Positions 16,034 through 64,000 are shown, counted from the first letter of the stretch. The stretch is DNA of 64,000 nt from Candidatus Oxydemutatoraceae bacterium (GCA_965237985.1 OZ250161.1:1615012-1679011); one strand, 5' to 3'. A program made the numbers and translations. Notes: a model not told the origin generated them from the letters alone.

Positions 16034-17892
16034 ATTGCCAGGCGGGCTTCTTTTTTCCCGCCGTAAATCAGGTTGGCAATGGCGCGCGTGCCTATAATGG
16101 CTGTGAACATGGAGCACAGAATGCCAATGGACAACGTCACGGCAAAACCCTTGATAGGGCCAGTGCCAAAAGTGAAAAGCACCACTGCCGCAATCAGAGT
16201 AGTCACATTTGCGTCGGCAATCGTTGACAAAGCCTGTCGGTAGCCGGAATCGATGCTGACTTGCGTTGAGTTACCCTGTTTCAGATGTTCGCGGATGCGC
16301 TCGAAAATCAAGACATTGGCATCCACCGCCATACCCACTGTCAAAACGATTCCGACGATGCCGGGCAAAGTCAAGGTGGCTCCAGGTATCAGGGACATTA
16401 TGGCAACGATGAGCACGAGATTGGCAATCAAAGCAAGATTTGCCAGCATGCCGAAGGTTCGGTAATAAATCCCCATGAACAGCACGACCAGCAGGAAAGC
16501 CAAGAGAACAGAGCGCTTTCCCTGGTCGATGTTGTCCTGCCCCAGGCTCGGCCCTACGGTGCGCTCTTCCACGATCTGCATCGGGGCTGCCAGAGCTCCT
16601 GAGCGCAACAGCAAAGAAAGTTTGCGGGCCTCGCGAGTGTCGTCCAGCCCGGTAATCTGGAAGCGCTTGCCGAGCTGTTCCTGGATGCGGGCAACGTTGA
16701 TGACTTCTTCCACGGTACGCAAGCGCCGCTTCGTTTCTCCGGTCAGGCTTTTTACTTTTTCGCTTTTGTTTTCAATGAATACCACCGCCATCAATCGCTT
16801 GACATTTTCACCGGTTACTTTGCTGAACAGCCGTGCTCCTTTTCCGTCCAAAGTGATGTGCACCGCCGGCCGGCCGGTTTCGGAATCTATGCCGGAAGAC
16901 GCGCTCGTGATGTATTCCCCGCTTAGCATCACACGGCGTTTGAGCAATATCGGATCGCCATTGCGTTCGTAATACAGTTTGGTGCCACGCGGTATCCCGC
17001 CCGTTCTGGCCGCACGCTGTGGGTCTTCATTTTCCGCCACCAAGCGAAACTCCAATGTCGCGGTGGCGCCCAGGATGTCTTTCGCCCGCGCTGTGTCCTG
17101 CACTCCCGGCAATTGCACCACGATGCGATCGCGACCTTGCCGGGTAACGGTCGGCTCGGCGACTCCCAATTCGTTCACGCGCTTGCGCAAAGTCACGATG
17201 TTTTGCTGCACCGCGAAATCCGACAGTTCCTTGACCGCATTCTCGGTCAGTTGAAAAAACGCCTGCAATGGGTCTGGATTTTCTTCCTTGGCCACAAGCG
17301 CGTTCGGGCTTTCTTTTTTCACCAGCTCCACGGCCCGGTCTCTTTCCTCCTGATTGGCGAAAGAAAAAGCGATCGCGTCCGCGGCTATTCTGGTTTTTCG
17401 ATAGCGTATCTTTTCCTTGCGAAACAAGGCGCGAAGTTCATTGTGATACCCCAACAATGCTTTATCTCTGGCCGCATCGACATCGACTTCCAACAAAAAA
17501 TGGACGCCGCCCCGCAAGTCCAGGCCCAGGTTCATGGGTGCTGCGTTGAGCGAACGTAGCCACTCCGGAGTGGTTGCCGCCAAGTTCAATGCCACGATGT
17601 AGCCAGGAGGAGCCCAGTCTCTCAACAGCCCAGAGGCCAGCAGCTGCGAATCCGTGTTGTGGAAACGGATCAGCAGTCCCTGAGGAGTCTTGTCCATGGA
17701 CTTCCATGACACTGTCTCCTTGGCGAGCGTTTCTGTAATCTGGTCGCTGATGGTGTCGCCGATGATGCCGTCAACCACGTTGGAAATCTGTACCGCCGGA
17801 TCATCGGGATAAATGTTTGGTAATGCGTAAACGGTTGCTGCCAGCAACACGAACACAATCAGGACGTGTTTCCAGACGGGATAATGGTTCAT
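16030..17892 (-). CDS. secD: Protein translocase subunit SecD
   Basis: 620 aa with N-terminal TM helix, periplasmic domain and C-terminal 6-TM core ('GIVLTVGMAVDANVLIFERIRE'). yajC-secD-secF operon. Confidence 0.9.
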   Translation of the reverse strand: MNHYPVWKHVLIVFVLLAATVYALPNIYPDDPAVQISNVVDGIIGDTISDQITETLAKETVSWKSMDKTPQGLLIRFHNTDSQLLASGLLRDWAPPGYIVALNLAATTPEWLRSLNAAPMNLGLDLRGGVHFLLEVDVDAARDKALLGYHNELRALFRKEKIRYRKTRIAADAIAFSFANQEERDRAVELVKKESPNALVAKEENPDPLQAFFQLTENAVKELSDFAVQQNIVTLRKRVNELGVAEPTVTRQGRDRIVVQLPGVQDTARAKDILGATATLEFRLVAENEDPQRAARTGGIPRGTKLYYERNGDPILLKRRVMLSGEYITSASSGIDSETGRPAVHITLDGKGARLFSKVTGENVKRLMAVVFIENKSEKVKSLTGETKRRLRTVEEVINVARIQEQLGKRFQITGLDDTREARKLSLLLRSGALAAPMQIVEERTVGPSLGQDNIDQGKRSVLLAFLLVVLFMGIYYRTFGMLANLALIANLVLIVAIMSLIPGATLTLPGIVGIVLTVGMAVDANVLIFERIREHLKQGNSTQVSIDSGYRQALSTIADANVTTLIAAVVLFTFGTGPIKGFAVTLSIGILCSMFTAIIGTRAIANLIYGGKKEARLAI

Positions 17893-29600: not shown

Positions 29601-29747
29601 GAACTGCACCTGGATTTGGTGGGAGCCTGCCTGGCAGCCGAACAGGCGGTGGCCCAAAGCAACTCGGCCAAAGATGAGATCCCTCATGAGATACTTGAGC
29701 GGATTGACCGTTGTGTGCGTAGCTTGCTCAAGGAATATGTTCAGTGA
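26640..29747 (+). CDS. Type IIL/IIG restriction-modification enzyme, MmeI family (endonuclease plus gamma-class N6-adenine methyltransferase plus target-recognition domain, one polypeptide)
   Basis: N-terminal 'FADLVFYSARLVIETKARGK' matches the MmeI nuclease motif (D-x10-E-x-K, compare MmeI 'FVDLFWPGILLIEMKSRGK'). MTase motif X 'FGEYYTPDWLA', motif I 'VLDPACGSGTFLFHAARRI', motif IV 'LIGNPPWIV'. Followed by about 450 aa of TRD. 1035 aa. Confidence 0.8.
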   Translation: MKKQEKIGIRSRLQKLSTLNGEDEIRSEVGELFELLGLPDKSLQHRVGRWFADLVFYSARLVIETKARGKVNPEDRGSGLDETQKGQLARYLEKLTAKEISPSDQPWRGVLTDGETWHVYEWNTKSHPGREKSGPRSSRVAEPRPSLYGWNDERMREIRPKFQFQAKHNGRAESFIEFFRQYLAPEKRRGKPAPPSDLGTSVLQPFFHDLAQLAENAEGDPHFNTKFRVWKSVLKGAGLLPPEGMVSRTRRLFREHTALVVTARGILNAMGKTTQRDAGLDRDLNSGFVSWLQEVTGGAERTRQLFQDLEKYEWRGTTRDVMRTAYEQLIKAEDRKEFGEYYTPDWLATAVCEDVLDVDWLNHALAAARQALTSRRARESRIEPLLGIGVLDPACGSGTFLFHAARRIVDHAVRERGFSPKEACHAAAILVHGMDIHPVAVEMSRAVLRTALPDLDDQDAEHLSVYVGDSLQTDEFQSGTLLGKDTVYVQSTKDHSIEIPRDLLSRPDFSVLIECLVGAALEKEPLNLCEFEMDKSLEKKLQIAYRALKKICRDEGNHVWAWKIRNTAKPLQLTGSGVDRLIGNPPWIVSNDTPEGVRKQAFKEMTKGYGLRDPKLHRSSAKGDLAALFAVRAIDLYLASGDGRKGGGGVAKRFAFVLPGSALINQVWRPFRTGNWQGKQHRVEATLETPWDLGGVKEAPFPHAPNQACVVRGYLGAAQQLPKAIFWKASDVELEQDWETARRLIRQSSGSEAFPEPKASLYVREFHLGVMLRPLCLGLTTDWESRGDLIRFTTYRSTKGPWKGKQYRGEMEAEATHSLLRSQTLRAFRALPDALLLAPLRDESIADLETWPKAWLPKARKWFREHEKVFQKYRSSKSAPSLLGNINWKNTFTRQYLRALKSPKALRKVVYNASGSSLRAARVVLGLAVNAKCYYAILTSEKAAAYLVATLNAPCLLPAWNHYKTSRLDYDLNPLRSVPVPVFDKTDELHLDLVGACLAAEQAVAQSNSAKDEIPHEILERIDRCVRSLLKEYVQ

Positions 29748-30099
29748 ATATCGTCGGTGACACAGTCTCCCCATGACATGTTTTCGTATTGTTTAGAGCG
29801 AGGAAAGCAATCTCCACAAGAACCAGAAATGGTTCCCCACCGTGCTTCGGAACAAGATCTTTTTTTATGACATGGTTTTCAAAAAGTATCCCTCAAATAA
29901 GATACATTTGAGGGTATCCGCAGGGGAGTGAGGCATTTTTTGTTTTTGGACATCCCTGCGGCTGCTTGAAGAGTTTTGCAGTTCCGGTATCGCTCAGGTC
30001 AAGTCTCAGGGCAATGCACTTCAATGTCGCCTCGCCCATCTCCCAGCTCGAAGCTCCTAAGCCGCCACGCTGAAAAATTTCTTGCGACCGCCAGTCATC

Positions 30100-30205
30100 G
30101 GTCTCGCCTGTTCAGGGGCCACGAAATTGGGTGGCTTGTTCCCCAATGTCTACGTGCCTGCCTGTTCAGGGGCCACGAAATTGGGTGGCTTGTTCCCCAA
30201 TGCTC
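30100..30205. repeat. Direct repeat, two copies, 54-bp period ('cctgttcaggggccacgaaattgggtggcttgttccccaatg')
   Basis: Exact 42-nt copies at 30107-30148 and 30161-30202, in the 850-bp spacer between the RM gene and the ImmA-like gene. Confidence 0.8.
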
Positions 30206-30605
30206 AAGATATTCAGACCCCAGTCATTTGTGGTACTTTCGGTTGCCCAACTCCGAAAACTGCGCGCTTCCGTCAACCCCCTCGGTTTCCTGGTGTGTTT
30301 TGACTAGACGGCTTGTTATTTGAAGCGAATGTTCCCGCAAACCAGTGCAGAACATGTACGTCTGGCTCAGGGTTTCTCAGTTTTGTTGCATCAGTATGCT
30401 ACAGTTCGTGCGTCCAATTTACCTTCCAGTTTGCCTATGCTTTTATATAGGTTTGTTAGTTTTCCCATCTCTAGTTTTGTGCTCTTTTATCCCTTCCGCG
30501 CCAGCGTCCACTTTCGTGTCAAGACTTCCCAGATAGAACACCCCCCCTCCCAGAACCACCAAAATTCCAAGTGCCTTTTATGTGTAATTCCCATTGTTTT
30601 AGAGC

Positions 30606-31844
30606 GTGACAATGCCTCGGATTCTTGAAAAAATTTCGCCGTGCACCATGAAATGGGCGAGAGTAGATGCAGGCTATCGGACTATCGAGAGAGCCGCCAA
30701 AAAATTATGCCAAGCTGCGGAAAGAATCAGAGGATGGGAAGAGGGGAAGAAGCTTCCTACGGCAGCTCAGCTCAGAGAAGTCGCCAAGACGTACCACCGG
30801 CCGATTTGCTTCTTTTATCTAAAAGAAGTTCCTGAACAGTTCAAGATTCAAAGGCCCGTGGACTTTCGACACCTGTCTTCGGATGTTCACGAACGCTGGA
30901 CTCCCAACCTGATGTTGATGATCAGACAGGCACATGACCGGCAGGACTGGGCGCGCGAACTGTTGGGTGATGAAGCGGGAAGCCAGAATTGGGTCGCCTC
31001 CGTCGACGAAGGAAGCGATCCTAAAGCACTCGCTAAAAAAATACGAAATTGGCTGGGGATCTCTGAACAGAAACAGCGAGGGTTTTCCAATCCGGGGGGT
31101 TTTCTCAATGAACTGGTCCGCCTTGCCGAAAACAGGGGAGTCTTTGTTTCTCGTCATCGGCCCGACCAGAACAGATACCGGTCTATTGAGCCCGAAATAT
31201 TCAGAGGAATCGCGCTCAAAGATGCTGTCGCTCCTTTGGTGGTGATTAATCCAAAAGATGCAATCAGAGGGCAAATTTTCACTCTGCTTCATGAGCTGGC
31301 GCATTTGTGGATGGATGCACCCGGGCTGTCAAATCGAGAACCAGATAAACGAGAAGATACTAGAAACAGAAGAATTGAAGTTGCCTGCAACCGCATTGCC
31401 GCGCAGGTCTTGATGCCAAAGAACTGGTTTCTGGCCGAGTGGAAAAAGTGTTCCGGCCTCTCGGATGATGCTATGAGAATAAAGGAGGTTGCTGGAGTTT
31501 TTTCAGTCAGCAGAGAAAGTGTTGCACGGCGGCGGCTTGACGAGGGTGAAATTACTTGGAATCAGTACATTGAATTTCGTAAAAGGTACCAGGAGGATTG
31601 GCGAGCAGAAAAAGCGAGAAAAAAAGAGCAGGCTTCTCAGAAGTCAAGATTTGGAGGTATGGCGAGCGGGTTGCGCATCTGTTTGGAAAACGGGAAAAAG
31701 CTGGCCCGTCTGGCTTTGGAGAACTATCAAGATCAGGAAATAAGCGCCATCGAGGTTTCTCGAGCACTGAACATGAAAGTCGCACATCTTGGGAAGCTTG
31801 CAAAAGCGGTTGACATTGATCTGCCTGACTGGCGGGATGTATGA
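30606..31844 (+). CDS. HTH_XRE-family regulator fused to an ImmA/IrrE (DUF955, COG2856) zinc metallopeptidase domain
   Basis: N-terminal HTH ('AAKKLCQAAERIRGWEEGKKLPTAAQLREVAKTYHRPICFFYL'). HExxH motif 'LLHELAHLWMD' about 220 aa in. 4-nt ATGA overlap with the next gene. Confidence 0.8.
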   Translation: MTMPRILEKISPCTMKWARVDAGYRTIERAAKKLCQAAERIRGWEEGKKLPTAAQLREVAKTYHRPICFFYLKEVPEQFKIQRPVDFRHLSSDVHERWTPNLMLMIRQAHDRQDWARELLGDEAGSQNWVASVDEGSDPKALAKKIRNWLGISEQKQRGFSNPGGFLNELVRLAENRGVFVSRHRPDQNRYRSIEPEIFRGIALKDAVAPLVVINPKDAIRGQIFTLLHELAHLWMDAPGLSNREPDKREDTRNRRIEVACNRIAAQVLMPKNWFLAEWKKCSGLSDDAMRIKEVAGVFSVSRESVARRRLDEGEITWNQYIEFRKRYQEDWRAEKARKKEQASQKSRFGGMASGLRICLENGKKLARLALENYQDQEISAIEVSRALNMKVAHLGKLAKAVDIDLPDWRDV

Positions 31845-51233: not shown

Positions 51234-51653
51234 ATGCAGACCATAGCAGTGCGCATAGTCAGCCAGAAGGGCGAGGTTTACAACGGTAAGGCAAACATAG
51301 TCAGCGCCGATGCCCACGACGGCGGAGTCGGGATATACCCTGGGCACGCCCCGTTCCTGACCTTGCTCCGACCAGGAGAAGTCAAAGTGCAGGTCGAAGG
51401 AAAAGAAGACCTGCGCTTTTTCGTGGCCGGTGGCATGCTCGAGGTTCAGCCCGACTTGGTGACAGTTCTGGCAGACACCATTGAGCGTAGCGAAGACCTG
51501 GACGAAGACCGCGCCGAAGCGGCAAAGAAACAGGCAGAAGCGCTGGCGCACAAAGGCGATCTAAGCCCTGAGGACAGAGCCAGAGCCATCGAACAACTCA
51601 CCGAAGCGGTTGCCCGCCTGCACATGATCGAAGAACTCCAGAAACGGCACTAA
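51234..51653 (+). CDS. atpC: ATP synthase F1 subunit epsilon
   Basis: N-terminal beta-sandwich ('VVSAD...GILPGHAP') plus C-terminal helical hairpin. 139 aa. Confidence 0.9.
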   Translation: MQTIAVRIVSQKGEVYNGKANIVSADAHDGGVGIYPGHAPFLTLLRPGEVKVQVEGKEDLRFFVAGGMLEVQPDLVTVLADTIERSEDLDEDRAEAAKKQAEALAHKGDLSPEDRARAIEQLTEAVARLHMIEELQKRH

Positions 51654-51659
51654 CACTAA

Positions 51660-52140
51660 CCCCACCCAAGACCCGCCATGCTCGAGGTTCAGCCCGACTT
51701 GGTGACGGTTCTGGCAGACACCGTTGAGCGTAGCGAAGACCTGGACAAAGACCGCGCCGAAGCGGCAAAGAAACAGGCAGAAGCGCTGGCGCACAAAGGC
51801 GATCTAAGCCCTGAGGCCAGAGCCAGAGCCATCGAACAACTCACCGAAGCCGTTGCCCGCCTGCACATAGATCGAAGAACTCCAGAAACGGCACTGACCC
51901 CACCCAAGACCCGCCATGCTCGAAGTTCAGCCCGACTTGGTGACGGTTCTGGCAGACACCGTTGAGCGTAGCGAAGACCTGGACAAAGATCGTGCCGAAG
52001 CGGCAAAGAAGCAGGCAGAAGCGCTGGCGCACAAAGGCGATCTAAGCCCTGAGGACAGAGCCAGAGCCATCGAACAACTCACCGAAGCCGTTGCCCGCCT
52101 GCACATAGATCGAAGAACTCCAGAAACGGCACTAACACTA
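51660..52140. repeat. Two additional ~238-bp tandem copies of the atpC 3' end, immediately downstream of atpC
   Basis: 'ccatgctcga.gttcagcccgacttggtgac.gttctggcagacacc' occurs at 51425 (in the gene), 51677 and 51915. The copies yield the pseudo-ORFs 51678..51965 and 51916..52266 ('MLEVQPDLVTVLADTVERSEDLD...'). Confidence 0.9.
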
Positions 52141-52604
52141 ACCCCACCCAAGACCTGTAAAGCACCAACAGCCCGCTGTCCGCACAACCCCTTCCCCGCG
52201 CGGCTCACTTTTACAGACAACACTCCCAACCTACAACGCGCCACCAGAAAATTCCCCAAAATCTAAAGCAAAGTGAGCGTATCCCCCGCCAAAGCCAGTC
52301 CGGGCCGTGGCAGGGGCTAATAAATCTGTCAGATGAGGAGGATGCCAGAGGCTGCCGATGCTGAGGAGGATGCCAGAGGCTGCCGATGCTAGAGACCGCT
52401 CCTGACAAAAATCGCCTTTCGGATTCTTTCAAATGTCACCTGATAGAGCTGCGGATTTTCCAGGTGCGTTGGTGTTGAGAAGCACGGACTGTGGTGTAGA
52501 GATGAGAGGTGATAAAAAAGGATTTCGTGTTGATAAATTGCAGATACAAAACACCTCAGCGGCATGTTTTTGGAAACCATTTTGGAATTCTTCCGATCAA
52601 CGTG

Positions 52605-52642
52605 AAAAAACCCTGTTCAAGAGGGAGAACAGGGTCTTTTCG
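52605..52642 (+). terminator. Rho-independent terminator-like hairpin (A-tract on the 5' side, so possibly bidirectional)
   Basis: 'aaaaaaCCCTGTTCaagagggaGAACAGGGtcttttcg': 8-bp GC-rich stem, 8-nt loop, T-run. It lies between the atp operon repeats and the type I RM cassette. Confidence 0.6.
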
Positions 52643-52852
52643 TGGGTAATGTCCGAGGGATATCCGAGCGACCTGGAATACACTTCGATACCGGCAGCGG
52701 TACTTATCCGATGTGTCAGACGAACATGAACTTTCGATCTGTATCGTTGGTGTTTTCACGGTGGGTGCAAAATCCGCAGATTAGTGACTAACAACCAAAA
52801 TCCTCGTATACTCCGGAACACATCATCGGGGGTTGCATATTTTGGCAAGAAA

Positions 52853-54574
52853 ATGGCGGAAAAACTAACTCTCCAACAACTCGAGTCCTTTCTCTGGGAA
52901 ACCGCAGACATTCTCCGTGGCAACATGGATGCGTCTGAGTTCAAGGACTACATCTTCGGCATGATGTTCCTGAAACGTCTCTCGGACTCGTTTGAGGAAG
53001 AGCAAGAAAAAGTCATTCAGTACTACGTCTCGTCAGGAAAGTCACGGAAGCAAGCAGAGCAACTCGCATCTGACGAGGATGAGTACGACAAAACGTTCTT
53101 TGTTCCCGAACCTGCGCGATGGCACCAACTCAAGGATCTCAAGCACGACATTGGTGCAGAACTGAACAAGGCGACAGAGACGATCGAGGAACACAACTCA
53201 AGTCTCGAAGGGGTGTTGGTTTCCGTCGACTTCAACATCAAGAACAAACTCTCAGACAAGAAACTTCAGGATCTCCTGTCTCATTTTTCTCGTCATCGAC
53301 TGAGGAATGAGGATTTCGAGAACCCCGACCTGATGGGAGGGGCATACGAATACCTCATCAAGCAGTTTGCAGACTCGGCGGGAAAGAAGGGTGGAGAGTT
53401 CTATACCCCGAGTGAAGTGGTGAAACTTCTGGTATCCCTCCTCAAACCTCGTGCGGGTATGAAGATATATGATCCAACGGTTGGTTCCGGTGGAATGTTA
53501 GTGACCACCAGGCACTACCTCATCGATCACGGAGAGGATAAGTCCAACCTGTCCCTGTATGGTCAGGAGATGAACCTGAACACGTGGGCGATCTGCAAGA
53601 TGAACATGTTCCTACATGGCGTGTTCAACGCAGATATACGCAAAGGTGACACTCTGAGAGATCCTCAGCACATCTCAGGTGGTGAGTTGCAGGTATTTGA
53701 TCGGGTGATCGCAAATCCACCGTTCTCTCTGAAGAAATGGGGGAAAGATGAAGCAGATAACGATGCGTATGGACGGTTTCCCTACGGAACACCTCCCAAG
53801 GGTGCAGGAGATCTTGCATTCATTCAGCATATGATTGCATCTCTGAACGCAGAGGGAGTGATGGGGGTGGTGGTTCCTCACGGCGTTCTGTTCCGTGGAG
53901 CGAGTGAGAAGGAAATTCGCAAGGGTATTCTTGAGGATGATCTACTCGAGGGAGTGGTTGGACTACCCTCGGGACTGTTCTACGGCACAGGAATTCCTGC
54001 TGCACTCCTGATCATTAACAAAAACAAACCCTCAGATCGAAAAGGGAAGGTATTCTTCATTAACGGTGAACTGGAGTTTGAAGAAGGTAAAAACCAGAAC
54101 AAACTCCGTGAGGAGGATATTCAGAGAATTCTCGCGACCTTCGATGGTTACGAGGACGAGAAGCGATACGCGAAGATCGTTTCCATCGAGGAGATCCGTA
54201 AGAACGACTACAACCTGAACATTCGCAGGTATGCAGACACTTCACCCCCACCAGAACAATTTGATGTCCGTGCGATCCTTCACGGTGGAATTCCCATCAG
54301 TGAGGTGGGGGACGAATATGTTCAGGAAACCCTGCAGGGAATGGATGTCGGTAGTGTGTTCGTTCGCAGGGACAACGAATACTACGAGTTCAAACCTGAG
54401 ATTGAGTCCAAGGAACAGATACGTGAGTTCCTGAACACGGATGAGCAGTCAACCATCAACCAATTCGAGAGGTGGTGGGACAAGTATCGTGTCTCCCTGC
54501 ACGAACTGGATGCAGAGGTGAAACAGTCGGAAGAAGTGATGTGGGGTTATCTGAAGGAAATTGGATATGAGTGA
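52853..54574 (+). CDS. hsdM: Type I restriction-modification system, methyltransferase subunit
   Basis: HsdM_N ('[32 protein letters not shown]'), motif I '[12 protein letters not shown]', motif IV 'IANPPF'. I took the start at 'MAEKL', Met 24 of the ORF. Confidence 0.9.
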
Positions 54575-55967
54575 TATCAGAACGGAAAAATCTTTTGAAA
54601 AGAGAAAACTTAAAGATATTTCTTCCATCAAACCCGGCATAAATGTTCCCGCGGAGATGAAAGGAACGATGAACGAGTTGTTGACCAAAGGGATCGGTCA
54701 CACAGAGTTCAAGGACAGTGAGTTGGGGAGAGTTCCTGAGGGTTGGGAGGAAATTACTCTAGAAACTTTAGTTTCAGTCGATAGCGATTCCTTGAAAGGA
54801 AATACAGACGCCAATTATAGGTTCAAATATATTGATATTTCGTGTGTCTCGACTGGAAAAGTGATGCCACCCGCCGAGAAAATTTTGTTTAAGGACGCAC
54901 CAAGCAGGGCAAAACGAGTTGTAAAGCGCGGCGATGTTTTAGTTGCCACAGTTCGCCCAAATTTAAAGGCATTCGCCCACTTTGATGAAGAGGGTGATGG
55001 TTGGGTGGCATCAACTGGTTTCGCAGTCCTTCGGCATAAGGAAAACTCTGATAGTCGGTTTATTTACAATATTATGCTGTCGGATGATGTCAGCAGGCAA
55101 ATAGATAGACTTGTTGCAGGGTCAAATTACCCAGCAATAAGTTCGTCTGATGTTAAAGAGTTAACTTTATTGTCCCCACCCCTCTCAGAACAAAAGAAAA
55201 TCGCATCCATTCTCACCTCCGTTGATGAGGTGATTGAGGAAACCCAATCGCAAATCGACAAACTCCAAGATCTGAAAAGAGGAACGATGAACGAGTTGCT
55301 GACCAAAGGGATTGGTCACACAGAGTTCAAAGACAGTGAGTTGGGGAGAATTCCGAAGAGTTGGGAAATTACCTCAATTTCCGAAATCACGAGTGATAAT
55401 TCCCTATTCTCTGACGGTGATTGGGTTGAAAGCAAAGATCAAGACCCGGGGGGGGCAAATAGACTTATCCAACTCGCAGATATTGGTGACGGAAGTTTTA
55501 TCGACAAATCCGTAAGGTTTATGAACGATGAGCAGTTCCGCCGCTTGAATTGCACCGCTCTTATGAAGGACGACATATTGGTTGCAAGAATGCCTGAACC
55601 GCTCGGGCGTGCATGTCTTTTCCAGAATACAAAACAAGACTGTGCAACTGTTGTCGATGTGGCGATCATCCGAACGCCGAACACGAATCCATATTGGTTA
55701 ATGTCAGTTATTAACTCTGCAAATTTCAGACGGAAAATTGAAATTAATGCGCGCGGTACAACTAGGACACGGATTAGTCGTTCTGCATTGTCAGATATAA
55801 AAATAAATCTCCCCTCCCTCTCAGAACAAAAGAAAATCGCATCCATTCTCACCTCCGTTGATGAGGTGATTGAGAAAATCCAATCGCAAATCGACAAACT
55901 CAAATCCCTCAAAAAATCCCTCATGCAGGATCTCCTGACGGGTAAAGTCAGAGTGTCGGTGAACTGA
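54561..55967 (+). CDS. hsdS: Type I restriction-modification system, specificity subunit with two TRDs
   Basis: Duplicated conserved spacer '[23 protein letters not shown]' (twice), '[19 protein letters not shown]' (twice), and C-terminal '[16 protein letters not shown]'. Confidence 0.9.
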
Positions 55968-55968
55968 C

Positions 55969-58950
55969 ATGTCCTCCGATGAATTCGACAAGGTAGAACT
56001 CCCTGCACTGGAACAACTCCAGTCACTGGGATGGTCATACCTTGAGGGTTCCCAACTTTCTCCCGATGAGTCGGATGCACGCACCTCCTACAAGGACGTG
56101 GTTCTCGAAAACCGTCTTGAGAAAGCGATCCAACGTATCAATCCGTGGATCAGCGATGACAACCTGCGCAGGGTGATCAGTGAATTCACCAGAGCGCAGT
56201 TTCCGAACCTGATCGAGGCGAACCAGTCTGTCTGGAACACCCTCACGCAATACACCTCGGTCATGCAGGATGTGGGTAAGGGTAACCGAGGACAGACGGT
56301 CAAGGTCATCGACTTCGACACCCCTGAGAACAACGAGTTCCTCTGCACCAACCAATTCAAAGTCTCAGGGGTGAACCAGACAATCATTCCTGACATCATC
56401 CTGTTCGTGAATGGACTTCCTCTCGCAGTGATGGAGTGCAAATCCCCCTACATCACCAATCCCATGGAATCTGGGATTGGTCAGTTGATGCGGTACGCAA
56501 ACCGCAGAAACCTGCAAGACGATGAAGGTGCAGAGAAACTCTTTCACTACAACCAACTGATGGTTTCGACCCATCTGGACAAGGCGAGAGTGGGAACTAT
56601 CACTGCAAGAATGGAACACTTTCTGGAGTGGAAGGATCCCTATCCCCTGTCGGTTGCAGACATCGGGGCAAACCCCCAATCACAGGATATTCTGATCTCG
56701 GGAATGTTCAGCAAGACGAACTTCCTTGATCTCATTCAGAATTTCACGGTGTTTGAACCTGCCGATGGACGCACCGTGAAGAAGATCGCACGATATCAGC
56801 AATTCCGTGCAGTCCACAAATCCATTGAACGCATCCAATCGGGAACCGATCGCAAGAGCAAAAGCGGAGTTATTTGGCACACGCAGGGATCTGGCAAGTC
56901 CCTGACGATGGTTTACTTGGTACTCAAAATCCGACGAGACGAAGCACTGAGGGGCTACAAACTCGTTTTCATTACCGATCGTACGCAACTGGACAACCAA
57001 CTCACCGCAACCTTTCAGAATACGCAGAACGAAACGGTGCACCGTGCGGACTCCATCCGTGATCTGAAGGGTCTTCTACAGAAGGATTCATCCGATATCG
57101 TGATGGCAATGGTGCAGAAGTTTCAGGTGAGTGCGAAAGAACTGGAGTTTCCTGTTTTGAATAAGTCCAAGAAGATCATTGTTCTCGCAGACGAGGCACA
57201 CAGAACCCAATATGGAACTCTGGGTGCAGCACTCAACGTGGGACTCCCGCAGGCACCCAAGATTGCGTTCACTGGAACCCCTCTCATCAAATCTGAAAAA
57301 ACCACCAACGAATTTGGTTCCTATATCGACACCTACACCATCGAGCAGTCGGTTGAGGACGGAGCGACTATCCCAATTCTCTATGAGGGACGCGAAGCAA
57401 GGGTGAACGTCACAGGAGACTCTCTCGATGGTCTGTTCGATGAGTATTTTGCAGATAAGACGGAGGAAGAAAAATCTGCAATTAGACGCAAATACGGCAC
57501 CACGAAAGCAGTTCTCGAGGCACCCCAGCGTATTCGCAGGGTTTGCATCGATATTCTCAAGCACTACCGCGAATTCATTCAGCCCAATGGGTTCAAGGCG
57601 ATGATTGTCACCTCATCGCGGAGTGCGGCAATCACCTACAAGGAAATGATGGATGAACTGGAGGCACCAGGGTCCGCAGTCATCATCTCAGGTAATCACA
57701 ATGACGAGGAACGATTTCGGCAATACACGGACGGCACCAAACAGAAGAACCAGATATTGGATTTCAAGAAACCTCTGGGTTCCGATGAGGGACAGTCCAA
57801 TCTCTCGTTCCTGATCGTCAGGGACATGTTGTTGACGGGTTTCGACGCACCCATCGCGCAGGTGATGTATCTCGACAATAAACTTACCGATCACAACCTT
57901 TTGCAGGCGATTGCGCGTGTCAATCGAACCAATAGAAACAAGTTTCGTGGGTATATCGTCGACTATTATGGATTGAGCGATTACCTGACGGAAGCATTGG
58001 AGATGTTCTCGACGGAGGATGTGGAAGGTGCGTTGCGAGATCTCAAAGACGAGATACCAAGACTGCAGAACGCACACACGCGAGTGATGCAGTGCTTCAT
58101 GGGCATGGATCTGGACGATCTCGATGAATGCATTTTCTCTCTCGAGGATGAAGTCCGACGACAGCAGTTTCAGTTAGATTTTCGAAAATTCTCCCAGCAG
58201 ATGGACGTGGTTTTACCTGCTCCAGCAGCAAGCCCGTTTGTGTCGGATTTGAGAAGACTGGGGAAAATATCTCATGGAGCACGGAACCGCTTCAGAGATG
58301 AGCAACTCTTTATCGCAGGAGCAGGCGAGAAGGTTCGCAAACTGATAGAGGATCACATCTATTCGACAGGGGTGGATCCTAAAATCGACCCCGTTTATCT
58401 CCTGGCAGCGGATTTCAAAGAAAAATTGAACCAGCACAAATCCAGCAGGGCGAAAGCATCCGAGATCGAGAATGCGATCAAGCATCACATAAAGATCAAA
58501 CTCGAGGATGATCCCGAATTCTACAAATCTCTCTCCGAGAAATTAGAGTCCATCATTCGGAAGCACGAAGAGAAGTGGGGTGAGTTGGTTCAATCACTCA
58601 TGGATTTTCGTGGCACCATCGAGGAAGGACCAGAAGCAAGGGCAAAAGAACTCGGCCTGACGGAAACGGAGTTCGCGTTTCACAACATCCTGAAGGCAGA
58701 AGTCACCAAGGCCGAAGGTGTGGAGACAATCGACGAGGGCATGCATCAGAAGGTGAAGGATGTCTCCCGGAAACTCGTCGCAATGATGGACGAAGCAACG
58801 AAGATCGTTGATTTCTTCGAGAAATGGGACGAGCGAAGGAGAGTGCGTCGGGATATCAAACGCGCAATCATCGCAGAGTTTGATGATGTCAGTTTGGTGA
58901 AACCGATCACTGACAGGTTCATGGAACTGGCAGAGCGAAAGTTCCGATGA
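55969..58950 (+). CDS. hsdR: Type I restriction-modification system, restriction subunit (helicase/endonuclease)
   Basis: 993 aa. N-terminal HsdR_N, SF2 helicase motifs ('HTQGSGKSLTM' Walker A, 'VLADEAHRTQ' DEAH box). Confidence 0.9.
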   Translation: MSSDEFDKVELPALEQLQSLGWSYLEGSQLSPDESDARTSYKDVVLENRLEKAIQRINPWISDDNLRRVISEFTRAQFPNLIEANQSVWNTLTQYTSVMQDVGKGNRGQTVKVIDFDTPENNEFLCTNQFKVSGVNQTIIPDIILFVNGLPLAVMECKSPYITNPMESGIGQLMRYANRRNLQDDEGAEKLFHYNQLMVSTHLDKARVGTITARMEHFLEWKDPYPLSVADIGANPQSQDILISGMFSKTNFLDLIQNFTVFEPADGRTVKKIARYQQFRAVHKSIERIQSGTDRKSKSGVIWHTQGSGKSLTMVYLVLKIRRDEALRGYKLVFITDRTQLDNQLTATFQNTQNETVHRADSIRDLKGLLQKDSSDIVMAMVQKFQVSAKELEFPVLNKSKKIIVLADEAHRTQYGTLGAALNVGLPQAPKIAFTGTPLIKSEKTTNEFGSYIDTYTIEQSVEDGATIPILYEGREARVNVTGDSLDGLFDEYFADKTEEEKSAIRRKYGTTKAVLEAPQRIRRVCIDILKHYREFIQPNGFKAMIVTSSRSAAITYKEMMDELEAPGSAVIISGNHNDEERFRQYTDGTKQKNQILDFKKPLGSDEGQSNLSFLIVRDMLLTGFDAPIAQVMYLDNKLTDHNLLQAIARVNRTNRNKFRGYIVDYYGLSDYLTEALEMFSTEDVEGALRDLKDEIPRLQNAHTRVMQCFMGMDLDDLDECIFSLEDEVRRQQFQLDFRKFSQQMDVVLPAPAASPFVSDLRRLGKISHGARNRFRDEQLFIAGAGEKVRKLIEDHIYSTGVDPKIDPVYLLAADFKEKLNQHKSSRAKASEIENAIKHHIKIKLEDDPEFYKSLSEKLESIIRKHEEKWGELVQSLMDFRGTIEEGPEARAKELGLTETEFAFHNILKAEVTKAEGVETIDEGMHQKVKDVSRKLVAMMDEATKIVDFFEKWDERRRVRRDIKRAIIAEFDDVSLVKPITDRFMELAERKFR

Positions 58951-59642
58951 ACCCAGAATTCGATAAGGATTTATCGATCGAGGTGGTTCGCACGAATAGG
59001 AAGAAGACTGCGTCCATCAAGATAGTCGATGGATCCGTTCAGGTGATCGTTCCCCGAAAACTCTCGAATGCGAGGGTTGCGGAACTCATTGAGAAACGAA
59101 CTCCGTGGATACGGCAGAAACTCCGTCAGCAGTCGGAAACGGTGGTCCTAAAACCCAAGGAATACGTGAGTGGAGAGAGTTTCACCCATCTGGGGCGGAA
59201 CTATCGTCTCAAACTTGTATCCGGTGGTTTGCGTGAGGTCAGACTCAAAGGTGGATACCTCGAACTTGGCGTCTCCAAGGGAACCAAGGATGGGGATATC
59301 CGAAATGCGTTGGTTCGTTGGTATGAGGAACACGCAATTGAGCGACTGACTGAGAAAACTGTGCGATATGCAAAGATTATGGATGTCGCACCTAACTCGA
59401 TCGTTGCGAGAGACTACAAATCACGATGGGGATCATGTTCCCCGCAGGGTGATATTTCCTACAACTGGAGGATCATCATCGCACCGCATCACATCGTGGA
59501 CTACGTGGTGGTTCATGAACTCTGTCATATGCAGCATCCAAACCACTCACCCGCATACTGGAATTCTGTAAAGCGAGTGATGCTCGACTACAAAGAGTCA
59601 CGGCAGTGGTTGAAGGATCATAGTGCGAGTTTGATTATTTGA
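58947..59642 (+). CDS. DUF45/YgjP-like M48-family metal-dependent hydrolase, commonly linked to type I RM operons
   Basis: C-terminal 'VVVHELCHMQHPNHSPAYW' HExxH motif. 231 aa. ATGA overlap with hsdR. Confidence 0.8.
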   Translation: MNPEFDKDLSIEVVRTNRKKTASIKIVDGSVQVIVPRKLSNARVAELIEKRTPWIRQKLRQQSETVVLKPKEYVSGESFTHLGRNYRLKLVSGGLREVRLKGGYLELGVSKGTKDGDIRNALVRWYEEHAIERLTEKTVRYAKIMDVAPNSIVARDYKSRWGSCSPQGDISYNWRIIIAPHHIVDYVVVHELCHMQHPNHSPAYWNSVKRVMLDYKESRQWLKDHSASLII

Positions 59643-59643
59643 T

Positions 59644-60006
59644 TTACTTCTGATTCTTCAGAATGATGTCCCGCACGTTTTTTGAGTAACCCTGAACATA
59701 GTTGTCGAAGTTCATAAAGACGTTGGTGGGGTCACTCTTAATCCGGGATAGGTCGAACTTTGATGTATTGAAGAAGGAAAGACCAACCTGTCTCAGGATC
59801 ACTGGAGAAGGATCAGAGAGTTGATCTTTGAATTTGTCGTAAAGTTCATACACCTCATCCTTCTGGGGTGCCAGGACACAATCCAGACGCCTCATGACCA
59901 CGAACGGAAGAATGACTCGACCGTATTCACTGGGTTTGAAGAGACCACGAAGGACGTCATCTGCTGACGACCAGATCAAGGATGACAGGCTGCTTGTACT
60001 GTTCAA
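59644..60006 (-). pseudogene. Truncated N-terminal fragment (120 aa) of a second HsdM/PglX-type N6-adenine methyltransferase, an HsdM_N domain only
   Basis: 'IWSSADDVLRGLFKPSEYGRVILPFVVMRRLDCVL...YNTSKFDL...FMNFDNYVQGYSKNVRDI' matches the HsdM N-terminal domain. The frame ends 2 nt from the end of the DUF45 gene, with no catalytic domain. Confidence 0.6.
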
Positions 60007-60093
60007 AAGATTGATTTCCCGACAAAAAGATTGAAAAGAACCGGATATTCCTGAATTATCAACGACGGCTAGGGGGTGTCCATGAAACGAAAA

Positions 60094-62490
60094 TCATTCC
60101 ACAGTGACGGATTTCGCCAGGTTACGGGGTTTGTCGACGTCGGTGCCTTTCAGCATGGCAGGGTAGGCGTTCACGAGTTCTTGTAGGCAAGCGCGAGTGG
60201 ACTGAACGGTCCCTTCTATGTTGTGTTCGGAAAACTCCTCTGTATTACCTAAGGCAAATTTCGGCAGGTCGTCAAACAGAAATCTGTATGGATCAGATGC
60301 GGATGAAACAATCCCACGAAGTTTTTGTGCGTCCCGACTTATGGTGGTGGTTCTCTGGGTCCAGACTGGCAGGCTGGTAACGACAGAAACCAAAATTCTG
60401 GCGACTTCAAGAGGAGTACCTTTCTCGTTGGCTTCAGCACCATAATATTCAGCCATAAAGTCTTGTATGCCCGCCAAAACCAGGGACCGAACTCTGTCAA
60501 GATTCATCCGGCGTATTTGGACCGCTTCAGGTTCTTGATGCATCCGATCAACAAACCATTCATCCAAGTATGGTCGGAATGTTCCATCCAGGTAGAGTGC
60601 CAATCGCTCCGTGCGAGACAACAGGTATGCAAGAGCCAGTACTGGTAACAATCCGGCACGAACACCATATGGTGCATCCGACCAAACGTCGAAAATATTG
60701 GCCAAAGATATTGGTTCAATTTTCGCGTCCTTTAGTAGCCTGTCGGCTGCTAGCCATAAATTTTTAAGGTTACACGGATCTTTGTCAGCTGGTTCTTGGA
60801 ATGCAAATCGGTTTCTTTCTTTATCGGTTGTTCGATACAAATTTGTCGCTTCCAGCACGCTTGTGAATAAGCCGGCCTCGGCAGGGAACCCGGTGAATCC
60901 TAATCGTTCTCTACCGTGTTCTTTGACCATTGCGCGCATCAGCAGACGGCGAGCCGCCACAGCAGTGCTTGACGGTTTGGCGCGGTTCAGCAACTCATTA
61001 CATATTCGTGGGGCGTATGGGTAGGTTTTTTCAGCAAGATCAGAAACGTAACGATGGATTGCCGCCAAGCCATTCAGTTTGATTTTGTGCCCTTCGCTGT
61101 ACCAAGAGGACACGGACAGGAAGGCATCATTCAGTGCGAATTCCAGTTTATGTCTGGTGGCATCAAGGCGTGTTTCGACTTCAAGTCGTGCTATGGCATC
61201 GCCACTCAATTCCGGACGCTTGCTACGAATTTGCTCCAGCACGGCAAGCTCTTGCATTAAATCAAGGAGCATGTTGCCGTTCGGAGCAAGCCCCGCCGTC
61301 ATATTCTTGTTTTTGTACTTTGAAACTTTGCAGAGTAACGCTATCGCTTCACGCTCCGACACATCCTTGGATGGAAGTGCGACGACGAAGATGCCGAATG
61401 ATCCCGTGTTTGGCTGGAACGTCTTCGCACGTGTATCAACTTTGTCTATCGTGAGGACATCGACATCAACCCAGCGCATTGCGCCTGTTTTATGGTAATG
61501 GCGTTTCGCCATGATTGGCCGTAGTGCTGCCAGTTTCTGAATAGTCGCAGAATCCAGGGCTATGGTTTGGTTGAGCTCTCTATCAATAGCCGCATCAATT
61601 TCAAAGTCGCTACCGGCATGTATAGCGAAGGCTGACAAGTGCCGCCGGTAGACAACGATGGACCACCGCATCAAATCCTTGAGCACCTTGTTGCGTGTGG
61701 TTCGTGCAATGGTAGGGGTGGCGATGTCCAATACTTCCCGTGAGGCATAAAACCCCGTGCGTTCTCGAAACAAGTCGATGAGGGCAATGGTTTTGGCTAT
61801 CACCAAATGGTCAGTCCTGCCACCGCGAGACTCGCAACGTTCGAAGGCTTCAAGTGCGGTTGACCAACGATGGCAGTCAGGGGATGCCAAAATAGATGGC
61901 TCGAAATTATCGTGCAAATAATCCCACAGCATTGCTGGTAAATAGGTATTTTCTTTAGTAGCTTGTCTTAGGAAATGCTGAAACGCATGAGGTTCCGAGG
62001 AATTCAAGAAACTAAAAATGCTACGCTGGTTCTGCCCAAATCGGCGACGAAAACATGGGCCAAGCAAGCAGGCAGTGACCGGATTAAGGGGCCAGCATCC
62101 TGCTAAATATACGCTCAGGTTCTTGTCGGTCGTGCCCTTGTTGTTATTGATGAGATTCGCGAGAGCACACGCTGCCGCCGGCGCTGTTTTCGGAGGCTTC
62201 TGTGTTTCAATGGAGCGGGCTAACAGGGCTAACTGCTCATTGGCGGTACTCGCCAGTGGCATATCTAGAAATCGGCCTTGCACCTTCATCCACTTGTCCT
62301 GGGTTTGGCGCGCCATGCGATTGGTATATTCGGCAAAGGCTTGGTGCAGGATCCCGACGACAATCAAGCGCCGATCACTACGTGAGGCAATTTCTGCGAG
62401 TTCCTGCAGAAAGTGAAGATCACCATTACCTTGTCCTGTTTCCTCAAGAATCTTGCCCATTTCATCAATAAAGATAATGGGTCCTGACAA
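60094..62490 (-). CDS. Large P-loop NTPase-like protein whose N-terminus is replaced by an IS1595 insertion; possible BrxC/PglY-like or other defence ATPase
   Basis: About 800 aa continuing in frame from the IS transposase remnant. Walker B-like 'IIFIDEMGK' immediately after the junction, then a long helical region. No Walker A remains. The family assignment is speculative. Confidence 0.45.
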   Translation of the reverse strand: MSGPIIFIDEMGKILEETGQGNGDLHFLQELAEIASRSDRRLIVVGILHQAFAEYTNRMARQTQDKWMKVQGRFLDMPLASTANEQLALLARSIETQKPPKTAPAAACALANLINNNKGTTDKNLSVYLAGCWPLNPVTACLLGPCFRRRFGQNQRSIFSFLNSSEPHAFQHFLRQATKENTYLPAMLWDYLHDNFEPSILASPDCHRWSTALEAFERCESRGGRTDHLVIAKTIALIDLFRERTGFYASREVLDIATPTIARTTRNKVLKDLMRWSIVVYRRHLSAFAIHAGSDFEIDAAIDRELNQTIALDSATIQKLAALRPIMAKRHYHKTGAMRWVDVDVLTIDKVDTRAKTFQPNTGSFGIFVVALPSKDVSEREAIALLCKVSKYKNKNMTAGLAPNGNMLLDLMQELAVLEQIRSKRPELSGDAIARLEVETRLDATRHKLEFALNDAFLSVSSWYSEGHKIKLNGLAAIHRYVSDLAEKTYPYAPRICNELLNRAKPSSTAVAARRLLMRAMVKEHGRERLGFTGFPAEAGLFTSVLEATNLYRTTDKERNRFAFQEPADKDPCNLKNLWLAADRLLKDAKIEPISLANIFDVWSDAPYGVRAGLLPVLALAYLLSRTERLALYLDGTFRPYLDEWFVDRMHQEPEAVQIRRMNLDRVRSLVLAGIQDFMAEYYGAEANEKGTPLEVARILVSVVTSLPVWTQRTTTISRDAQKLRGIVSSASDPYRFLFDDLPKFALGNTEEFSEHNIEGTVQSTRACLQELVNAYPAMLKGTDVDKPRNLAKSVTVE

Positions 62491-63260
62491 GTTAAGCGGC
62501 TCTTTTCTGAATATTCCAAGCAAAATCTTGTAAAGATTTTGCTTGCGATTGTTGAATCTAAATTCACATTCTTTAAGATGTAAATTGAATGTACTTTTGT
62601 CCATCCCTTTAAACTTTACCAACCTAGTTTTTGCATAACCCCAAAATGACTCTATGCCATTAATATGAGAATTTCCTCTGGCGAATTCATTCTCACCATG
62701 ATGAACTCTAAAGTGCTTCTTATAACCAAAATCTACTAAACCATTATACCCACGCCAGCCATCAGAATGAATAACACTATCTATACTTGTTTTACCTCTA
62801 ATTATCTTGGTTAAAGTCGCTGCAGTGCAATCTGGAACAATCTCAGTATAAACTTTATCACCGCGTTTTAATAAACCAAATACTTTGGTTTTACCTTTGG
62901 CGCCAAGACCACGCACACCTTTGACTCTTTTTGCCCCAAAGTAAGATTCATCAACTTCAATCTGTCCCACTAATAGGGCAGATTGGTTGGTTGAATCTCT
63001 GGCAATCTGCTTGCAAATTGCCTTTAAATATTGATTAATAGTTTGTCTACTTAACTTTGTTAATTATTGGATTTGAACGGTGTTCAAATCCAAAGAAAAA
63101 TAGCGAATAATTTCTCTAAATTTATGCTCAGAAATTCTTGAACGAATTACATATTTATTTTTCATTGTCATAACAATACTTTATCATGTTTTTAAACATG
63201 CTTAACTTGTCATAACCCTTATTTAATATCGCCCTCGAAATTAACCATCATGAGAGAGAT
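62480..63260 (-). mobile_element. IS1595-family (ISXO2-like) insertion sequence with a frameshifted transposase
   Basis: Minus-strand 'MTMKNKYVIRSRISEHKFREIIRYFSLDLNTVQIQ*' (63171 to about 63065), then after a frameshift 'LTKLSRQTINQYLK...GQIEVDESYFGAKRVKG...NGIESFWGYAKTRL...ECEFRFNNRKQNLYKILLGIFRKEPL'. The boundaries are approximate and the IRs were not identified. Confidence 0.7.
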
Positions 63261-63431
63261 GAACTGCTGAACGAACTAATCCATGACTATATTATGAACA
63301 CACTCACCAGTGACTCTAGCAATCTGTATCCGTGTGCTGATGCTATTGATAGAGTGAGTGACGTGTTTGATTCATAAAGCATTAGCACCACACATTATTT
63401 ACTACCGTGTCCGAGTGTTATAAATTCAATA

Positions 63432-63998
63432 TTATTTTGTAACTGTAACTATGATGGTTCTTCCAGTTAAACATTCAATAGAATTCATTTTATCTACATA
63501 TTGCTCATTATGCTTATCAATTGTTTTGAACTTCCTTTTTTCTTTCTTTGTAGTAAATACTGAAGTTAATTTAATAACTGGATATAAAAAAATTAACCAA
63601 ATCAATGAGGTTTTTTGCATTTTATCAATAGTTAATTCTATTTGAGAAAAACCAGCATCTAATAATGAATGAACCAAATAAAAATATGAAATAGGATTTA
63701 TATGACTCCCAGTTGAATGTATCTCACTTTCATTAACATGCAATGGTCCAAATAAATTATAAAACCCATACGTTAAAAACCTTACCCTTGATTTTAAATT
63801 TAAAATATTTGGAGTAGACATCACTAATACTCCACCTGACTTTATGACCCTATTAATCTCTTTAAGAATACCCCGATGATTTTCTAAATGCTCTATAACT
63901 TCTGTAAAAATAACTGCATCAAAAAAATTATCCTCATAAGGTAACTTACAATGATTCAAATCTACAACATCCACCTTCTGATTAGGCAAACCCATTAA
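63432..63998 (-). CDS. Class I SAM-dependent methyltransferase (Methyltransf_11-like), 5' end beyond the window; AT-rich
   Basis: 'DAVIFTEVIEHLENHRGILKEINRVIKSGGVLVMSTPN' is MTase post-motif II/III. GC content is markedly lower than in the core genome. Confidence 0.6.
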   Translation of the reverse strand, partial: LMGLPNQKVDVVDLNHCKLPYEDNFFDAVIFTEVIEHLENHRGILKEINRVIKSGGVLVMSTPNILNLKSRVRFLTYGFYNLFGPLHVNESEIHSTGSHINPISYFYLVHSLLDAGFSQIELTIDKMQKTSLIWLIFLYPVIKLTSVFTTKKEKRKFKTIDKHNEQYVDKMNSIECLTGRTIIVTVTK

Positions 63999-64000
63999 AG

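Follow-up and report, generated by a model that had tools for sequence, protein, structure and literature searches.

Introduction

When an intact restriction-modification (R-M) operon lies directly against fragments of other defence genes, does the arrangement record one defence system replacing another, or a join between pieces of different origin? The question is raised by the region that follows atpC, the last gene of the ATP synthase operon, in a sponge-associated gammaproteobacterium, Candidatus Oxydemutatoraceae bacterium (GCA_965237985.1 OZ250161.1:1615012-1679011; hereafter the window, the whole stretch of 64,000 nucleotides that was analysed). An earlier note on this DNA had described a type I R-M cassette, hsdM-hsdS-hsdR plus a DUF45 gene, of low guanine-plus-cytosine (GC) content and nested inside decayed defence genes, and had taken this as successive replacement of defence systems at one hotspot. 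In our account the region is probably a mosaic defence island, in which an intact and mobile type I cassette stands beside relics built by illegitimate joins and one insertion sequence (IS). Comparison of the genes supports relics of at least two other systems adjoining the intact one: a second type I system, represented by a fragment of its hsdM (hsdM'), and an Ssp module, represented by a fragment of sspC (sspC'). Haplotypes are compared throughout between the window and three contigs (L001, L002 and L003) that came from a YgjP look-up and belong to one metagenome assembly, ERZ25766962.

A complete type I operon that circulates among hosts

Judged by its genes, the sole complete defence system of the island is the type I hsdMSR operon with its ygjP (DUF45) gene. 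The four genes form a tight plus-strand operon of about 6.8 kb (52853-59642), overlapping or abutting one another, with ygjP overlapping the hsdR stop by 4 nt; the layout is as in a translationally coupled operon, and all have full-length matches in Pfam, PADLOC and NCBIfam. The HsdM protein exceeds the TIGR00497 cut-off (264.6 against 242.75), matches PADLOC MTase_I PDLC03031 and carries the catalytic motifs DPTVGSG and NPPF, as a type I HsdM should. As expected of a specificity subunit, HsdS is an intact open reading frame (ORF) of 468 residues with two target-recognition domains (TRDs) parted by conserved regions. The conserved spacer repeats of hsdS are duplicated (54662-54748 with 55280-55366, and 55175-55303 with 55811-55939), the first pair reflecting an additional N-terminal copy of the central conserved repeat. 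HsdR combines HSDR_N, SWI2_SNF2, ResIII, T1R_D3-like and T1RH-like_C domains with the motifs PD..ECK, GSGKS and DEAH, that is, a PD-(D/E)xK nuclease and a superfamily 2 (SF2) translocase; the closest solved structure is that of EcoR124I HsdR, with an E-value of 1e-36 over residues 106-564 only. In the type I family the TRD pair of HsdS picks a bipartite methylation target, and unmodified DNA is cut after ATP-driven translocation. From this family knowledge we infer that the cassette should act in the same way.

The intactness of the cassette and its low GC content, both put forward in the earlier note, hold well: the cassette has 48.4% GC against 54.0% for positions 1-52129, hsdS is lowest at 43.6%, and no cassette-sized interval within 1-52129 falls under 50.7%. 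Relatives of the cassette are widespread. A search with HsdR returned more than 120 clusters at least 71% identical in several phyla (Opitutales, Porticoccaceae, Planktomarina, alphaproteobacteria and others), the top relatives being 89, 85 and 84% identical, and copies at 81-89% identity occur in contexts unrelated to each other. On a 1.58-Mb contig (L024:4104-13668) hsdMSR-ygjP follows glmU-glmS and precedes fba, with 46.5% GC in the cassette and 60-63% in the host. A second copy (L025:5683-18391; HsdR 85%) rides on an element with a large serine recombinase and has a glmS 3' end at the contig edge, while a third (L028) lies on a plasmid-like contig with Replicase, ParA and RepA_C; L026, L027 and L029 are further, different contexts. 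The HsdR proteins of L024 and L025 are 81-85% identical to that of the window, and homology with the window ends at the cassette gene borders in both. The ygjP gene stands 3' of hsdR in L024-L028 and in the two nearest genomes, L004 and L005 (see below), L029 being the sole examined context without a called ygjP. Because HsdR relatives at 81-89% identity sit in unrelated contexts and the cassette GC stays at about 46-49% irrespective of host GC, the cassette looks mobile, and these comparisons support its being a horizontally circulating module. Among the cultured plasmids of PLSDB there was no close named relative, the best HsdR identity being 54%. As a separate observation, the glmS flank is a recurrent landing site of the hsdMSR-ygjP cassette (L024 and L025).

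A glmS-hsdM fragment against the end of the cassette

The earlier note had the cassette abutting a truncated HsdM_N-like fragment, and the coordinates bear this out: the ygjP stop ends at 59642 and the hsdM' ORF, on the opposite strand, ends at 59644, 1 nt away. The fragment belongs to another type I family, being 28% identical to the N-terminus of the intact HsdM and matching a different PADLOC model (PDLC03029 as against PDLC03031). Upstream of it, an 87-nt spacer contains the best sigma-70-like match of the region (60082-60055), and beyond the spacer lies the very end of a glmS gene (glmS'), fused in frame to sspC at a junction that was set by comparison with an intact SspC (P0363). The glmS tail has 81.7-82.8% nucleotide identity to the genuine glmS 3' ends of L024 and L025. 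The layout matches as well, since L024 has glmS, 121 nt and then hsdM where the window has glmS', 87 nt and then hsdM'; the spacer downstream of glmS in L024 and L025 is unrelated to that of the window. Taken together, glmS', spacer and hsdM' look like one unbroken piece of a locus in which, as in L024, a type I system comes after glmS.

Two other routes to the origin of this piece were tried and rejected. Homologues of hsdM' gave no link to glmS: they are mostly fragments, and the contexts viewed, a frameshifted type I operon (L016) and IS21-truncated genes (L017-L020), are without glmS. Likewise, a Tn7/attTn7 reading is at odds with a glmS tail of only 54 nt, with the lack of tns genes and with the sole transposition gene belonging to an unrelated IS.

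A truncated sspC and its intact counterpart

The minus-strand ORF at 60094-62970 is a chimera of about 160 codons from the C-terminal part of an IS1595 transposase, codons 167-944 of sspC and the glmS tail. SspC is the ATPase of the phosphorothioate (PT) DNA-modification system SspABCD. The relic begins past GGGKS, and so is without the Walker A region, and is also without about 182 C-terminal residues; it aligns to one full-length homologue (P0123) only through residue 944, full-length SspC relatives having 1115-1145 residues. Identity as BrxC of a bacteriophage exclusion (BREX) system was rejected, since SspC models score 919 bits against 294 and since SspB and SspA adjoin the gene in L001. 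There the IS is absent: sspC (961 residues) is complete at its N-terminus, sspB, sspA and SbcCD-like genes follow it, and the contig carries the same glmS' tail and hsdM'. Because L001 lacks the IS and retains the N-terminus, the N-terminal loss in the window is real. In L002 the IS occupies the same position in sspC.

No SspA, SspB or SspD was found in the window between 52200 and 64000; L001 has SspB and SspA and no SspD. SspE, a PT-sensing effector, has no match in the island of the window or in L001, and a GmrSD_C protein of L002 was rejected as a candidate because PADLOC gives it no match and it combines a YHYH domain with a hydrophobic leader at the N-terminus. In L001, SspB (DUF4007) and SspA (cysteine desulfurase) precede SspC, as in the described SspABCD-SspE and SspFGH systems (PMC9646914, PMC8092258). 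The closest intact Ssp island (L021-L023) comprises sspA, sspB, sspC, sspD, pbeA-like and pbeC-like genes, a dnd-associated protein, a Sigma70_r4 protein and sspE. Without the Walker A region, SspB and SspD, the relic in the window cannot function.

Does the relic then mark the loss of an Ssp system? The SspC cluster at 90% identity has four members, namely the proteins of L001 (961 residues) and L002 (958 residues), the window fusion (958 residues) and the full-length P0363 (1129 residues), and the last two are recorded on one 2,000,500-nt contig, which also has a protein identical to the HsdR of the window and is thus its likely source. Over residues 168-944 relic and P0363 differ at 1 of 777 positions; after "...AYPAMLK" P0363 goes on with TLDALLL..., and it is there that the relic turns into the glmS tail. 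The same 2.0-Mb contig encodes an SspB identical to that of L001, SspA and SbcC-like and SbcD-like proteins (records P0367, P0369, P0371 and P0373), and a 246-residue methyltransferase. With full-length SspC, SspA and SspB on the same contig, these three at least were not lost from the genome, and the sspC' of the island is evidently a recent, incomplete duplicate of a gene that survives intact at another place in the chromosome.

An insertion sequence at a rearrangement junction

The N-terminal part of sspC' gives way to an IS1595-family element, which we take to be of the short IS1016-like subgroup and whose 19-nt inverted repeats (62479-62497 and 63200-63218) are 89% complementary. Its transposase begins with an ATG at 63165 and has a single in-frame TAA (63066-63064), the frame being otherwise open and running out of the IS into sspC'; the NF033547 match spans the stop codon. 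The transposase is thus a nonsense mutant, not a frameshift mutant. The earlier note had described a large NTPase whose N-terminus was displaced by a frameshifted IS1595 element; the displacement is confirmed by the intact N-terminus in L001, the frameshift gives way to a stop codon, and the NTPase is SspC, cut at its C-terminus also. The L002 copy of the element has the same TAA, the two differing at about 1% of positions.

No target-site duplication was found, the flanking sequences being AAGATAAT on one side and TTATTTAA on the other, and the flanks are unrelated, sspC lying to the left and a fragment of 37% GC to the right. The position of the IS is therefore that of a deletion or rearrangement, as had been supposed, and not that of a simple insertion: neither the open transposase ORF nor the target-site duplication of a simple active insertion is present. 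It is a single copy, no other having been found in the window.

Beyond the element lies a very AT-rich segment, which extends for only about 1.5-2 kb in L002. That contig lacks window positions 63219-63585 (367 nt) beside the right end of the IS (L002:8093/8094), so that the 3' end of the methyltransferase gene there is gone, in what looks like an IS-adjacent deletion. Past the window end, L002 continues with the rest of the methyltransferase gene, an rve_3 fragment, the GmrSD_C/YHYH protein, a 414-residue protein and, on the minus strand, a 589-residue Sigma70_r4 protein. The methyltransferase gene has 246 codons in full on the source contig and matches small-molecule families only (Methyltransf_11/23/31 and UbiE), one member of its cluster being named UbiE by the Joint Genome Institute (JGI). 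Neither a DNA-methyltransferase domain (N6, N4 or C5) nor a partner restriction gene was found for it. An AT-rich methyltransferase is there, as first described, at 27.5% GC; its inclusion among the defence genes does not stand, for it is UbiE-like and, by its domains, not recognisable as a defence gene.

Variation among the four haplotypes

The TRDs of HsdS differ across all four haplotypes, with 27-45% amino acid identity (window 54561-55967; L001:3713-4928; L002:1-842; L003:5704-7021), and HsdM and HsdR are more than 99% identical. In L003:1960-2100, at a junction near 2028/2029 (equivalent to window 51108), the 3' end of the Sigma70_r4 gene is joined to atpD codon 427, GGGGGCCGCATC running into TTTCGCGAGATT. 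The contig is 17,158 nt long, and the island period, from the hsdM'-glmS' spacer back to glmS', is about 17.0-17.1 kb; the joint and the near-period size suggest that the whole island has been duplicated in tandem or exists as a circle. The final 26 nt of L003 diverge at the glmS' junction, which was judged to be contig-end noise, the sequence returning to register. A recombinase was found neither within the island nor close to it in any of the four haplotypes.

The atpC end of the island

The window carries the core genes argS, secD, murJ and rnpB and a complete plus-strand atpIBEFHAGDC operon, with atpC as its final gene. The AtpC protein is 85% identical to those of the related Ca. Oxydemutatoraceae and Ca. 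Porisulfidus genomes. Immediately after atpC, its 3' end is repeated head to tail in units of 238-244 nt, each made of codons 67-139 (73 codons), the stop codon and about 25 nt, and every extra copy has a 1-nt insertion close to its end. The window has two extra copies, L003 three (L003:2304-3321) and L001 at least four (L001:1-1330), and neither of the nearest relatives, L004 and L005, has the repeat. These copies might be taken for the attachment (att) sites of an island borne by an integrase. This was rejected, as they are strictly head to tail with nothing between them and no integrase is present; their absence from the relatives and their varying number also speak against it. Tandem duplication fits the array better.

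Between the atpC repeats and hsdM lies 0.7 kb of DNA in which a 28-nt unit is perfectly repeated twice in tandem (52334-52389; TGAGGAGGATGCCAGAGGCTGCCGATGC), followed by a terminator-like hairpin (52610-52635) and a promoter-like site (52784-52812) upstream of hsdM. A Pfam search of all small ORFs between 52130 and 52944, at E-values up to 1, gave no relic; tblastx of the left flank against every fetched locus found matches only in the sister haplotypes, and an Rfam scan of 51-64 kb found none. Table 1 lists the features from atpC to the end of the window.

Table 1. Features of the post-atpC island, in order along the window (position, strand and basis of each call)
Feature	Position	Strand	Basis
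atpC, left anchor of the island	51234..51653	+	ORF and Pfam ATP-synt_DE
atpC 3'-end copies, two extra, head-to-tail	51654..52129	+	Repeat analysis
Left spacer	52130..52852	.	No homologue detected
hsdM, type I N6-methyladenine (m6A) DNA methyltransferase, intact	52853..54574	+	Pfam HsdM_N and N6_Mtase (E 1e-108)
hsdS, specificity subunit	54561/54567-55967	+	Pfam Methylase_S in two stretches
hsdR, type I restriction/translocase subunit, intact	55969..58950	+	Domains and TIGR00348 (score 572)
ygjP-like (DUF45) HExxH metallopeptidase	58947..59642	+	Pfam YgjP-like (E 3e-61); HELCH motif
hsdM', first 120 codons, other type I family	59644..60006	-	HsdM_N 1-108/135; PADLOC MTase_I PDLC03029 4-118/661
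Spacer, 87 nt, glmS' stop to hsdM' start	60007..60093	-	Promoter-like scan
glmS', last 17 codons and stop (54 nt), GTDVDKPRNLAKSVTVE*	60094..60147	-	NCBIfam TIGR01135 577-607/607
sspC', codons ~167-944 of 1129	60148..62478	-	PADLOC SspC PDLC02780 162-933/1045 (E ~1e-276)
IS1595-family element, 740 bp	62479..63218	-	PF12762 DDE_Tnp_IS1595; NF033547 1-215/215 (score 161, cut-off 75)
AT-rich fragment, final 52 codons of an unidentified ORF	63219..63431	+	ORF; deleted in L002
Class I S-adenosylmethionine (SAM)-dependent methyltransferase, 3' part	63432..64000	-	Methyltransf_11/UbiE-like; 27.5% GC

Two other parts of the window, apart from this island, deserve mention. A 220-nt tandem array of about 17.5 copies with 90-94% matches occupies 8239-12048, some 230 nt away from the minus-strand RNase P RNA gene (7676-8010); its period is not a multiple of three, its AT skew is strongly negative and its 140-residue ORFs have no Pfam match. 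Positions 26640-31844 form an earlier island encoding a 1035-residue protein that has an N6_Mtase domain and may be a fused R-M enzyme, together with a helix-turn-helix (HTH) and ImmA/IrrE (Peptidase_M78) protein.

The atpC neighbourhood in the nearest genomes

A scan of the genome collection with AtpC gave as nearest genomes two sponge-type metagenome-assembled chromosomes, Ca. Oxydemutatoraceae OZ243039 (L004) and Ca. Porisulfidus OZ244118 (L005), whose AtpD is 94% identical to that of the window. In both, atpC is followed on the same strand by a 581-residue Sigma70_r4 protein, 57% identical to that of L002, and within 4-7 kb, on the opposite strand, stand T5orf172/PDC-S57, ygjP and hsdR, with HsdR 67% and YgjP 51% identical to the window proteins. 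The gene order is an inversion of that in the window lineage. The relatives' hsdR has 48-49% GC against 54% for the atp genes, the same deficit as in the window. Because both relatives also carry hsdR-ygjP near atpC, there is no clear sign that this type of cassette arrived last. The earlier note had named even GC content and a block conserved in its synteny among relatives as the pattern that would count against its reading, and on this the comparison is mixed: GC content varies, and L004 and L005 share the synteny only in part and in inverted order.

The Sigma70_r4 proteins are 570-724 residues long and 48-57% identical over their full length, and the Sigma70_r4 helix-turn-helix is their only recognisable domain. 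They lie beside atpC in both relatives (L004:11270-13015; L005:10567-12312 and 14652-16364, two in this genome), at the far end of the island (L002:12557-14326, minus strand) and between Pbe-like genes and sspE (L022:19332-21506), and look like an uncharacterised companion of defence islands.

How the island may have been assembled

The course of events that we infer includes illegitimate joins. By these the glmS'-spacer-hsdM' fragment would have become attached at its hsdM' end to the end of ygjP, and at its glmS' end to a partial copy of sspC, exactly after residue 944 of the latter. In the strain of the window, the IS1595-family element may in addition have removed the sspC N-terminus together with sspB and sspA, joining the sspC remnant to the very AT-rich foreign segment with the UbiE-like methyltransferase.

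What might such relics do once in place? If sspC' and the intact sspC are direct repeats, recombination between them could delete in one step everything that lies between, including the C-terminus of the intact SspC, and the product would match L001, in which sspB, sspA and the SbcCD-like genes come straight after sspC(1-944)::glmS'. Relics of this sort could, by extension, be recombination substrates that reshape the defence repertoire of the symbiont population, the sspC' direct repeat giving the L001 deletion and L003 holding an amplified or circular island without a recombinase; we put this forward tentatively, as a rather doubtful proposal.

The first of the other explanations is that of the earlier note, in which the site once belonged to other defence genes, an older type I system among them, the low-GC cassette inserted into the old hsdM and replaced most of it, and the relics are what remains of lost systems. 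The 1-nt distance between the ygjP stop and the end of the truncated hsdM' ORF is what such an insertion might leave, hsdM' does come from another type I family, and the cassette is demonstrably mobile among hosts. Yet a matching piece of the old system, for instance the 3' end of an hsdR or hsdS, is absent from the left flank, and hsdM' is continuous with a glmS tail and promoter spacer, so that this 0.5-kb piece looks imported or translocated, not left in situ. When it is added that SspA, SspB and full-length SspC persist elsewhere on the contig and that the relatives already have this cassette type near atpC, the explanation becomes doubtful. What survives of it is a variable, compositionally foreign defence region after atpC that contains relics of other systems. 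"Nested inside decayed defence genes" describes the right flank only, the left being atpC repeats and DNA without detectable homology; "successive replacement" overstates what can be read from a directionless junction, a cassette type shared with relatives, an Ssp relic that duplicates an intact gene and an AT-rich gene outside the defence genes.

A second possibility is that in this family the type I cassette has long resided near atpC and been inherited vertically, its low GC being intrinsic, and that the stretch running from hsdM' through the methyltransferase came in afterwards and now separates ygjP from the Sigma70_r4 gene. The two nearest genomes are the source of its appeal: no more than 10 kb parts their atpC from hsdR-ygjP and the Sigma70_r4 gene, the GC deficit is that seen in the window, and the genes stand in an order of which the window order (atpC, type I, ..., Sigma70_r4 gene on the minus strand) is a simple inversion. 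Identities point the other way: HsdR is 67% identical to those relatives, against 71-89% to unrelated taxa and mobile contexts, while AtpD and AtpC are 94% and 85% identical to the very same relatives. As the cassette orientation also differs, we consider vertical descent unlikely. It is also conceivable that cassette and glmS tail came together, as the end of an L025-like integrative element targeting glmS, with glmS' as the attachment-site remnant. L025 does have its cassette on the plus strand with a minus-strand glmS 3' end to the right, as in the window, and a large serine recombinase at its far end, and the L024 cassette directly follows glmS. Joint arrival is nevertheless quite improbable: the island has no recombinase in any of the four haplotypes, homology with L024 and L025 stops at gene borders and their post-glmS spacer is unrelated, an hsdM' of another family stands between ygjP and glmS', and three other close contexts of the cassette are without glmS.

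The mosaic island built by illegitimate joins thus remains the probable explanation, and several points weigh against it. The relatives hold a cassette of the same architecture in the atpC neighbourhood, so that long residence near atpC with allelic exchange is compatible with the data. In L001 and L003 hsdS is frameshifted, which may be long-read error or real inactivation, and type I specificity and expression are predicted from the genes. Of the five closest cassette contexts examined, just two have glmS. The proposed duplication and recombination history would also depend on the position and strand of the intact ssp genes and of the real glmS. The cassette of the window may have displaced an earlier resident copy, or its arrival may have been independent of one.

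Two cautions follow for the reading of defence islands. A truncated defence gene need not mean a lost system, the relic here being a fresh partial duplicate, and a low-GC cassette abutting a gene fragment does not set the order of arrival. The locus also shows, in good resolution, how strains of a single sponge microbiome vary in defence, namely in hsdS TRDs, IS-driven deletion and repeat copy number, and it documents a widely shared hsdMSR-ygjP cassette that recurs downstream of glmS, on an element with a recombinase and on a contig resembling a plasmid.

Comparison with known systems

All components of the island are of known kinds (type I R-M, Ssp, IS1595, defence island), the instance is new, and nothing here alters the accepted workings of these systems. 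The new detail lies in the in-frame sspC::glmS' join, in a relic that is paralogous to a live gene and in the co-existence of structural variants. With type I R-M systems the operon shares all domains, the catalytic motifs and a two-TRD HsdS with conserved repeats, and the swapping of TRDs between strains, the low GC and the horizontal spread are typical of the family. It departs from them in the apparent translational coupling of hsdR to a YgjP-like (DUF45) metallopeptidase gene and in the extra N-terminal copy of the central repeat in hsdS. The likeness of HsdR to that of EcoR124I, a type IC enzyme, is a distant one that does not establish type IC membership.

In relation to the PT-based SspABCD-SspE and SspFGH systems, the ATPase remnant is clearly an SspC. 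Unlike those systems, the island has an sspC fragment without the C-terminal 182 residues in all haplotypes, no SspD or SspE is called in the parts seen, and in the strain of the window the Walker A region, SspB and SspA are missing too, from a gene that duplicates an intact one. The nearest intact Ssp islands pair SspABCD with PbeA/PbeC-like genes, a Sigma70_r4 protein and SspE. The IS follows its family in that one DDE_Tnp_IS1595 transposase fills a 740-bp element with 19-nt terminal inverted repeats, and differs from the family norm in its in-frame TAA, its unrelated flanks and its lack of a target-site duplication.

With the hotspot downstream of glmS (attTn7), the window has in common that a type I gene comes after the 3' end of glmS, as in the glmS-flank insertion of L024; its own hotspot, in contrast, lies after atpC and is without a glmS body, tns genes or a recombinase. 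With defence islands in general it shares the clustering of several defence modules and the debris of mobile elements beside a conserved housekeeping operon.

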